Assembly: GCA_013265495.1 (NCBI GenBank)
Contig: MU058217.1
Coordinates: 434,001-455,557 of the forward strand
DNA: 21,557 bases
Direction: 5' to 3'
Source of the DNA: Vicugna vicugna
Taxonomy: Eukaryota
Part shown: piece by piece, positions 13,636 through 16,225 of the stretch
Layout: each line of letters opens with the position of its first letter
Numbering within the stretch: position 1 is the stretch's first letter
The notes under the pieces: model-generated
Told to the model about the DNA's origin: nothing
What the model saw: only the letters and a program-made list of their open reading frames with translations
Database searches by the model: none
Translations under genes and position numbers: made by a program

Positions 13636-14650
13636 TTGGGACAGTGTCATATCTGACTCTGACTCTCTAAGTAAGTTCCTTGTCTCTAGCAGGCTCAGCA
13701 CCATGTCTCTGAAAGGCTCTGCTTGGCCCTTCTCACCAGCCTCTTCCTCTTCAGCTCCCAGCATCCCTTTCCAAGTCTTCCCAGCCTTCCCAACTGGTGG
13801 TCCAAGCAGAAGACATCCTGATTGGATGAAACACAGGTCAGCAAGAGATCAGAAGACAGTGTTTCCATTCAGGTTTTTTTTTTCTGCCATAAGTTGAACT
13901 GAAGGAGCTCATCTCGGTTAACTTACCTAAGTGAGTGAATTTTGAACAGTTGGGAAAAACAGGTGAGCATCACTTAATAGATATCCTTGGAAATCTTAAA
14001 AACCCCACACAGCAAGATTTTCAACCTTAGCAGTAAAACACTCATGATGAATAAAGACCCCCAAAATGGACTCATATAAGGATGTGACCTGGAATCAATG
14101 CGGTCATCTCTTTGGGACAGCAGAGAGCAGGATGACGTGACAGGGGAAAAACGCTGCTGGTGTGATGCCTCTGACCCTTGATGTGGCTGTAAAGCTAGCT
14201 ATTCAGCAACTGCACGTTACAGACTATGTTCCAAGTTGTCTGCTTGGTAAGAATATTTTATATAACCTCTCTAAACTTTTTCTCAAAAACATCTTTTTTC
14301 CGGAAGAGACGGGTTGAGGGGCTACACACGACTTGTCCACCCGTTGGGTGGATGCCACCTAGTGATAAAACAAGGTAACTCCTCTTCCCGCAAGACTGGC
14401 CGGCAACCAGGACAGACACGGCTCATAGGCTGCAGACAGCACGTCGTAACACAGTCCCTAGTCTTTGCCATCAGGAGAATACAGACAGAGTGATACTGAC
14501 CAAATGACACTGGCTTTTTCTCCTACCTGCCCAGGCTGGCAAAATCGGAGGGGGTCCGAGGGCTCCTCAAGATGTGTAACGGGGGCCCATCTGTGTGCCC
14601 AGATGCCACGTGGAATCCTCCGCTACCCTCCTCCGGCCCTCACGGCGTCA

Positions 14651-16072
14651 TCAGTGTCCAAAGATGAAGAGGGACTCGCTGGCTGCAGCCCCTGCCTTAC
14701 CACTCGGGGTGTACTTTCCTTGGCAGGCGAGGCTGTTGGCCAGGGCCCGCTTGACGTATTCTTCCTGAGCAGGCTTCAGGTTCTCCTTCTTTCCCCCCCA
14801 GGTCTTCAGGGCAGAGGCCTGCAGGGCTCGGCCATAGGAGAAGGTCAGAGCCCACGGCTTCAGCAGGGGGCACTTGTTGATGGCGTTGAGGTTGATGGAT
14901 GCCTCCTCCTCACTCTGGCCTCCAGATAAGAAGGTGATCCCAGGGACAGCGGGCGGCACTGTGCGGCGCAGTACCGTGACAGTTGCCATGGCAATCTCCT
15001 CATGAGAATATTTGTGGGTGCAGGCGTGGCCTAGGGTTACCATATTGGGCTTCAGCAAGGTGCCTTCCAGGTAGATGTGGTGGTCACTCAGAGCCTTGTA
15101 GACAGTAGCCAGCACCTTCTCAGTTACATACTGACAGCATTTCAAATCATGGTCCCCATCAGGGAGGATCTCGGGCTCCACGATGGGCACAATGCCATTC
15201 TGTTGGCAGATGCTGGCATAACGGGCCAGGACATTGGCGTTTTCCATGATGGCGAGGGAGGAGGGGGTGTGCTCCCCGATCTTCAGCACACAGCGCCACT
15301 TGGCAAAGTCAGCTCCGTCCTTCTTGTACTGGGCACAGCGCTCAGACAGCCTATCCAGCCCTTGGGTGGTCAACTCGCCATTTGTTCCTGCCAGGGGTAC
15401 CACACCCTTGTCTACCTTGATGCCCACAACACCACCCTTGGCTTTGATAACTTGGGGGAAGGGACGCCCATCATCTGCCTTCTGGTAGAGTGTCTCATGG
15501 AAGAGGATGACGCCACCAATGCAGGGGTTCACGCGGTCGTCAGCTGTCAGCAGCAGCTGGCGGTAGAAGCACCGGTTCTCCTCGGTGTTCTCAGTGCCGA
15601 TGGACTGCAGTCGCTTGGCAATGCACCCGGTGGGCTCATCTGCAGCCAGGATGCCCTTGCCCAGAGCCACGATGCGGTGAGCAATGTCAGAGAGCTCCTT
15701 CTTCTGCTCCGGGGTCAGTGCTGGGTATTGGTAGGGCATGGTGCCTGTCGGTTCCTTTCCTAACTCTGTTGCTGGGTGTTGCCCAGCTGAGGGTGGGGCT
15801 GTATACTGGCATCTGGGGTAAAGGAATAGGCCAAAGCCATGGACAGGCAGGTCATGTGGAAGCTGGACCCTTCTGGCTTGCGCTCTGCCATGGGGTCACC
15901 TTGCCTGGCACAAGAGAGGGGTGGGTTGGCGGGGTGCAGCGGTGGAGGACCGCGGGTTGGCGAGTGGACTGAGGGAGCGGACGCGGCAGTCGTCACCAGG
16001 ACTCTGGTTCTGCGGCGCGTTCCAAGCGGAACGCAGCCTATTCAGCTCCCGAGAGGGGGGCGCAGGGGGCTC
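14651..16072 (-). pseudogene. ALDOA: Processed retrocopy of fructose-bisphosphate aldolase A, long (V2-like) transcript; open 362-codon ORF at 14651-15739; probable processed pseudogene, retrogene status unresolved
   Basis: Intronless [27 protein letters not shown]...LLKPNM...SESLFI close to aldolase A. Upstream lie the spliced extension exon ([11 protein letters not shown]...) and a GC-rich ALDOA-like 5' UTR exon. Non-conservative substitutions, altered C-terminus (FIFGH*), no poly-A tail seen. Confidence 0.93.
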
Positions 16073-16225
16073 ATTTATTTTTATTATTCTATTATTTAAC
16101 TGTTTTATTTTGGCATGGGGGGAAGGTAATTAGGTTTATTTATTTTTAGAGGAGGTACTGGGAATTGAACCCAGGACCTTGTGCATGCTAAGCATGCACT
16201 CTACCACTGAGCTATACCCTCCCCC
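16073..16225 (-). mobile_element. tRNA-Ala(AGC)-derived SINE (camelid vic-1 type)
   Basis: Minus strand reads GGGGGAGGGTATAGCTCAGTGGTAGAGTGCATGCTTAGCATGCACAAGGTCCTGGGTTCAATTCCCAGTACCTCC followed by AAATAAACCTAATTACC and an A-rich tail. A box TAGCTCAGTGG and B box GGTTCAATTCC are present. Confidence 0.9.

Follow-up and report, generated by a model that had tools for sequence, protein, structure and literature searches.

A SINE-abutted, 3'-truncated ALDOA processed pseudogene upstream of GLP2R in Vicugna vicugna, most likely a dead by-product of retrotransposition

In the 21,557-nucleotide stretch of Vicugna vicugna DNA analyzed here (GCA_013265495.1, contig MU058217.1; hereafter the window), a tRNA-Ala-derived SINE lies on the minus strand at 16225-16112, and its A-rich tail abuts a spliced copy of ALDOA mRNA in the same orientation. 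Together, the SINE and the ALDOA copy span 1564 bp. The composite belongs to known kinds: it is most likely a processed pseudogene that abuts a SINE, is cut short at its 3' end and was left as an ordinary, dead side product of retrotransposition, and it very probably has no function. A first-pass annotation of the same DNA had proposed that the SINE and the retrocopy form a single Pol III transcription unit; it is likely that the composite contains no such working unit. That annotation had overlooked the frameshift in the long-isoform extension, the loss of the aldolase C-terminus and the position of the insertion upstream of GLP2R. Publications are given by PMC identifier.

Organization of the composite

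The features of the composite and its flanks, in the order in which they are read on the minus strand, are as follows.

16226-16251, minus strand: 5' flank of the SINE, with a TT/AAAA site of the L1-endonuclease type (first A at 16247); would-be 5' TSD, partnerless
16150-16225, minus strand: tRNA-Ala(AGC)-derived SINE head, identified with ARAGORN and Rfam; all CpG gone
16204-16214, minus strand: Pol III A box, by match to an assumed consensus
16161-16171, minus strand: Pol III B box, by match to an assumed consensus; coincides with the T-loop in the Rfam alignment
16112-16149, minus strand: short SINE body with AATAAA and a run of six C, read from the sequence
16073-16111, minus strand: A-rich tail of 39 nt (27 A, 9 T, three AATAAA), entering the cDNA at about 16072
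15905-16072, minus strand: GC-rich leader, likely an ALDOA 5' non-coding exon
15755-15904, minus strand: exon for the N-terminal extension of the long isoform, with ATG 15891 and a 4-nt deletion near 15765; the frame closes after 43 codons
14651-15739, minus strand: intron-less ALDOA frame (cDNA makes up 359 of its 362 codons) with 14 non-majority residues and the end FGH-stop, from the ORF and comparison with ALDOA cores
14661-14662, minus strand: 3' junction, where the cDNA is broken off in codon 360 with neither poly(A) nor TSD, from comparison with ALDOA cores
14527-14661, minus strand: unique 3' flank that contains the stop codon (14653-14651) and the first T4 (14544-14541); a splice-donor-like sequence, a pattern match only, follows 14527

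The element opens at 16225 with five G, and the stretch 16150-16221 was called as tRNA-Ala(AGC)-like by ARAGORN and scored 49.3 bits as an Rfam tRNA; its hairpin z-score of -4.5 is explained by the tRNA origin and the G/C ends. Both promoter boxes, which had been described as intact, indeed match the A-box and B-box consensus sequences that we take to apply. No second copy of the SINE was found within the window, and none of the 40 loci from a motif scan of metagenomes was a copy. We take the family to be vic-1-like, an assignment set by description and not by alignment to a consensus. Vic-1 is characterized in the available part of PMC3531059 as a simple tRNA-derived SINE of camels, and the element here, likened to it by description, also consists of a tRNA-derived head plus a tail in a camelid genome.

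The assertion that the SINE tail runs directly into the ALDOA cDNA stands for the abutment and the shared orientation; the 39 A-rich bases may include some target DNA besides the SINE tail.

The ALDOA copy derives from the long isoform

As is typical of processed pseudogenes, introns are absent and exons are joined, in a continuous frame of 362 codons preceded by a spliced extension exon. The leader (16072-15905) is presumably the ALDOA 5' exon, an identity that we assume. It is unlike the sequence that precedes the extension exon in the genomic P0001 and P0006, so a splice junction probably lies at 15905/15904. The extension exon joins the next exon as in the spliced sequences P0003 and P0010, unlike the genomic P0001 and P0002, and its 43 codons from ATG 15891 are 81-88% identical to the best eight hits, mammalian ALDOA N-terminal extensions (all 10 candidates were hits). 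In the copy, 152 nt separate the two ATGs, vs 156 nt in the 416-aa isoforms, a 4-nt deletion that closes the extension frame. By these sequence features, the template was the long (sperm-type) isoform of ALDOA, and its origin was probably germline.

In mouse, the long splice form Aldoa_v2 is expressed in spermatogenesis and is the source of the retrogene Aldoart1, according to the available text of PMC2881024. Like Aldoart1 as described there, the locus studied here is an intron-less copy of the extension-bearing long isoform with repeats beside it; in contrast to Aldoart1, its extension is frameshifted, its C-terminus, 3'UTR, poly(A) and TSD are missing, and there is no evidence of expression. 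The exact protein of the ALDOA frame was absent from a collection of 15 billion, and a search with the antisense frame that spans the junction gave four candidates, none at E<=1.

The 3' end is truncated

The frame ends in FGH-stop. At this place all 26 mammalian ALDOA cores used for comparison, which were selected among the proteins found as homologues by a HAY ending and a minimum length of 364, have S360, N361 and a final HAY. In the copy, the cDNA breaks off in codon 360, at 14662; the stop of the frame (14653-14651) is supplied by flanking DNA, and the "aldolase stop" that had been placed about 105 nt before the T4 is not that of aldolase. The native stop, the 3'UTR, the poly(A) and any 3' TSD are gone from the copy, and no AATAAA or ATTAAA occurs on the minus strand between its end and 10137. 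Processed pseudogenes typically carry a 3' poly(A) and TSDs; their absence here weakens the case for an intact L1 insertion, not that for an mRNA copy.

Decay of the coding frame

Compared with the bovine core, 15 of 359 residues differ, or 14 after removal of position 17, where the window carries the majority residue. Ten of these 14 fall at columns that are invariant in 13 distinct mammalian ALDOA cores, vs 16 of 75 for the orthologues' own differences in a leave-one-out comparison (Fisher p=0.0005). The fraction is somewhat below the neutral expectation of 92% (p=0.022), a shortfall that may reflect some early constraint, or else a few of the differences may be residues native to the camelid parent. 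Two of the substitutions are S35P and S38C (classic numbering), and the copy has also lost the C-terminal tyrosine; we take the two serines to bind phosphate and the tyrosine to act in proton exchange. Among 17 active-site positions that were checked, 15 are unchanged, and the main frame has no stops and no frameshifts over 359 codons; with indels left out, the chance of no stop is 0.57 given 13 missense changes.

The slower substitution rates that we assume to be plausible would turn a divergence near 1.8% (simple model) into an age of 9-18 million years. At the rate used in the accessible portion of PMC8605555, the copy would be about 4 million years old. Disabling changes and relaxed selection, as seen in processed pseudogenes, are represented by the 4-nt frameshift in the extension, the lost C-terminus and the decay-like substitutions at invariant columns, and on these grounds the ALDOA copy is likely to be a dead, decaying processed pseudogene.

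The host locus is the GLP2R upstream region

Two further features place the composite in its genomic setting.

12510-12848, minus strand: GLP2R coding exon 1, in a CpG island, with the annotated ATG at 12848 and the conserved ATG at 12689, by protein identity
1532-5932, minus strand: GLP2R exons 2-4, at about 5932-5840, 3902-3795 and 1657-1532, from tblastn with P0061

Over all of its 60 residues, the exon-1 peptide encoded at 12689-12510 is 100% identical to Vicugna pacos GLP2R X1, and it is 90-92% identical to the Camelus sequences; by sequence identity, the locus is that of the alpaca-type gut-hormone receptor gene GLP2R. As the GLP2R exons are on the minus strand, the composite precedes the gene in sense, at a distance of 1814 bp from the annotated start and 1973 bp from the conserved one. 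Beyond the junction, the flank is moderately rich in CpG (o/e 0.61 at 14250-14649). An open frame at 12505-13122 was rejected as a coding frame; its profile search matched a sheep GLP2R-like model and thereby led to GLP2R. Between 13100 and 21557, a Pfam scan of stretches of at least 34 codons (58 of 58 on the plus strand and 12 of 70 on the minus strand, one sent twice) gave no match that reached the curated cut-off; thus GSG1L2, which we take to be the head-to-head neighbor of GLP2R in human, was not seen in the scanned stretches.

Several additional observations were made at this locus. The in-frame upstream ATG (12848-12690, minus strand) adds 53 residues in the alpaca and wild-camel GLP2R models (603 aa) vs 550-553 in those of dromedary and whale. 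The stretch 12430-13107, upstream of GLP2R exon 1, is conserved with mammalian contigs and sheep, and the sheep model P0052, in which exon 1 is read in a different frame and exons 2-3 are missing, is likely misannotated. On the minus strand, the donor-like site at 14527 (135 nt past the end of the retrocopy) and an acceptor-like site near 13301, both pattern matches only, could mark upstream non-coding exons of GLP2R. A GLP2R intron contains a short minisatellite (894-1086, self-matches of 83-89%). Elsewhere in the window, 19779-20458 is a head-to-tail duplication of 339 bp at 98.2% identity, either recent or an assembly artefact, and at 17005-17203 a 63-bp stretch is repeated at 86% on either side of an N gap (17067-17142), likely a gap artefact.

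Transcription and possible function

The statement that the minus strand carries no TTTT from 16225 until 14544-14541 is true, the first T4 lying 1685 nt from the SINE start, but a run of this length is no more than expected by chance. T4 was likewise missing from 1007 of 2000 dinucleotide shuffles of 14545-16225 and, when the coding part was shuffled among synonymous codons, from 566 of 2000 sequences, and another T4-free run on the same strand of the window reaches 1538 nt. The A and B boxes and a downstream T4, the traits of type 2 Pol III genes, are present as pattern matches only. The unit of about 1.7 kb that had been proposed is possible in its geometry, with boxes and a downstream T4, but it has no positive support, its T4-free run being at chance level.

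Sequencing runs were searched with the unique flank 12400-14660. Fourteen of the 24 rows were DNA sets with 0.99-1.00 of the words of this query (five organism labels, six studies), 13 of them flagged as a possible source of the DNA analyzed here; as the query stops at the junction, they have no bearing on whether the insert is fixed. The word share was 0.26-0.42 in four RNA runs from two studies and 0.11-0.12 in two runs guessed to be RNA. Such shares may come from exon 1 of GLP2R, from a relative or from DNA, and do not count as evidence that the composite is expressed.

Three ways in which the composite could be active were weighed against its being silent, which is the probable state. If the SINE promoter worked, it would drive an uncapped non-coding Pol III RNA of 1685 nt to the T4 at 14544-14541, possibly acting on the GLP2R promoter, whichever route of origin applies. 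Both boxes match the consensus and no T4 comes earlier, but that absence is what chance would produce, no RNA evidence was obtained, and TTCTT at 14932 and TCTTT at 14664, which we presume to have terminator activity, may stop transcripts before the T4. As reported in PMC6724667, Pol III transcripts of Alus run into the unique DNA downstream and terminate there, and Alus close to genes are more likely to be expressed, the SINE here being 3.4 kb from the GLP2R start; against this stands the base rate in the same source, by which only 1.44% of human Alus have Pol III transcripts in any of 155 samples. We consider a functional Pol III unit very improbable. With eight ATGs ahead of the aldolase frame in an uncapped, SINE-started RNA, such a transcript would in any case be unlikely to rescue the protein.

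That the copy is a working retrogene in the manner of mouse Aldoart1/2, with Pol II expression in germ cells and the conserved ATG 15739 as its start codon, is less probable still. The 362-codon frame is open, the core catalytic residues are kept, and mouse has ALDOA retrogenes derived from the long isoform (PMC2881024, in part), but the strong upstream ATG opens a frame that the frameshift in the extension closes after 43 codons, the C-terminal tyrosine is lost, residues at 10 invariant columns are changed, and no polyadenylation-type hexamer of the two searched for follows the copy as far as 10137. About as improbable as the Pol III unit is a reading in which the SINE-ALDOA insertion removed a part of the region upstream of GLP2R, took its place and, through being transcribed, retunes this gut-growth hormone receptor in one lineage, either as a 1.7-kb Pol III RNA ending 1.7 kb before the GLP2R start or as a Pol II RNA spliced from the donor at 14527 into GLP2R. 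In the literature that was covered, partly as incomplete texts and with subscription journals outside the coverage, neither this locus nor a Pol III unit in which a SINE drives a retrocopy was found described.

Origin of the composite

The 5' flank of the SINE has no partner. The best match to it within 3 kb is 10 of 14 positions, and the best match when the flank is counted from the TT/AAAA site at 16247 is 13 of 22, which bears out the earlier remark that this flank is not repeated. A tail-derived TSD and remaining tail after the insert were also sought, and the best matches (7 of 8 or 11 of 15) are scattered; the DNA in which they would have lain is gone. Within the tail itself, a degenerate TSD (9 of 14 matching) was rejected, with 4688 of 5000 shuffles of the tail doing equally well, and with it insertion of the SINE at the 5' end of the copy at a later time with an ordinary TSD.

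The route that we favor, giving it about an even chance, is L1-mediated insertion into the tail of a SINE already in place, followed by loss of the 3' end. The SINE would have inserted first; L1 would then have nicked its A-rich tail and inserted the ALDOA mRNA copy in sense; and a later deletion would have taken the end of the copy (its last codons, 3'UTR and poly(A)) along with what remained of the SINE tail and both TSD copies on the 3' side. As reported in the portion of PMC3783187 consulted, 20 of 961 new Alus lay in sense in the tail region of a reference Alu vs 8 in antisense, with 10.3 or 17.2 sense insertions expected under two null models, and, in PMC2836564 likewise, Alu-in-Alu insertions cluster in sense right behind the A-rich linker. 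The shared orientation and the position at the A-rich tail fit this known nesting, with the newcomer in sense directly after an A-rich SINE stretch; the differences from the cited cases are that the insert is an mRNA copy and that the tail remainder and TSDs that would prove nesting are gone.

Neither a TSD nor an empty allele fixes the order of events, and a template-switch model fits the same sequence. In this rather unlikely scenario, the L1 reverse transcriptase copied the ALDOA mRNA to its 5' end, switched to the tail of a SINE RNA and read to its first base, and the chimera, dead in this model also, was inserted at the TT/AAAA site at 16247, its 3' end being lost at or after insertion. 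The SINE is full-length, in sense and directly joined, as in most of 452 Alu/L1 chimeras, which are mostly full-length, sense and TSD-bounded (PMC13174262, in part), chimeras of small RNAs and pseudogenes are known (PMC4476161, in part), and a site of the endonuclease type is found 22 nt before the 5' end of the SINE, although a SINE inserted alone predicts that site equally. The composite thus resembles the Alu/L1 and U6/pseudogene chimeras of these two sources in having a full-length copy of a Pol III RNA in sense 5' of a copy of a Pol II RNA, with an endonuclease-type site on the 5' side; it differs in lacking a shared TSD and poly(A) and in its partners, a cellular mRNA and a camelid tRNA SINE. 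The single TSD around both parts that defines such chimeras is absent, and in the part of Doucet et al. (PMC4476161) available, a comparable TSD-less pair of a small RNA and an Alu was read as two independent events, with template switching mostly involving U6.

Tailless or endonuclease-independent capture, in which a broken DNA end paired by microhomology with the ALDOA mRNA at codon 360 and primed its reverse transcription from there, with deletion of the target site, so that the 3' end was never present, is improbable. A copy that is 5'-complete (here on the strength of a leader that we assume to be from ALDOA), 3'-truncated and without an A tail has the outline of tailless retropseudogenes, mRNA copies included (PMC5322556 and PMC2912911, as far as available). 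That class is defined in the available text of PMC5322556 with a TSD and mostly A-rich priming sites; here, in contrast, no TSD of 8-35 nt flanks the copy, and the end point is pyrimidine-rich.

With the 3' DNA missing, the evidence that would separate the three routes is lost, and the ranking of insertion into the SINE tail above template switching is a judgement from published base rates. The first-pass annotation had named the right pair in these two models, but both of them require the loss of the 3' end of the copy, which it had overlooked.

Implications

As a dead composite, the insertion would be one more by-product of L1 activity and a fossil of the long ALDOA splice form, with this leader, in the camelid germline. 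Its residual interest lies in its position in the GLP2R upstream region. No evidence of transcription was found; if the composite were transcribed, it would be either a natural, kilobase-long, SINE-driven Pol III RNA that contains a whole mRNA copy or a lineage-specific change of the GLP2R promoter, and it would be a convenient case for testing whether retrocopies obtain ready-made promoters from SINEs.
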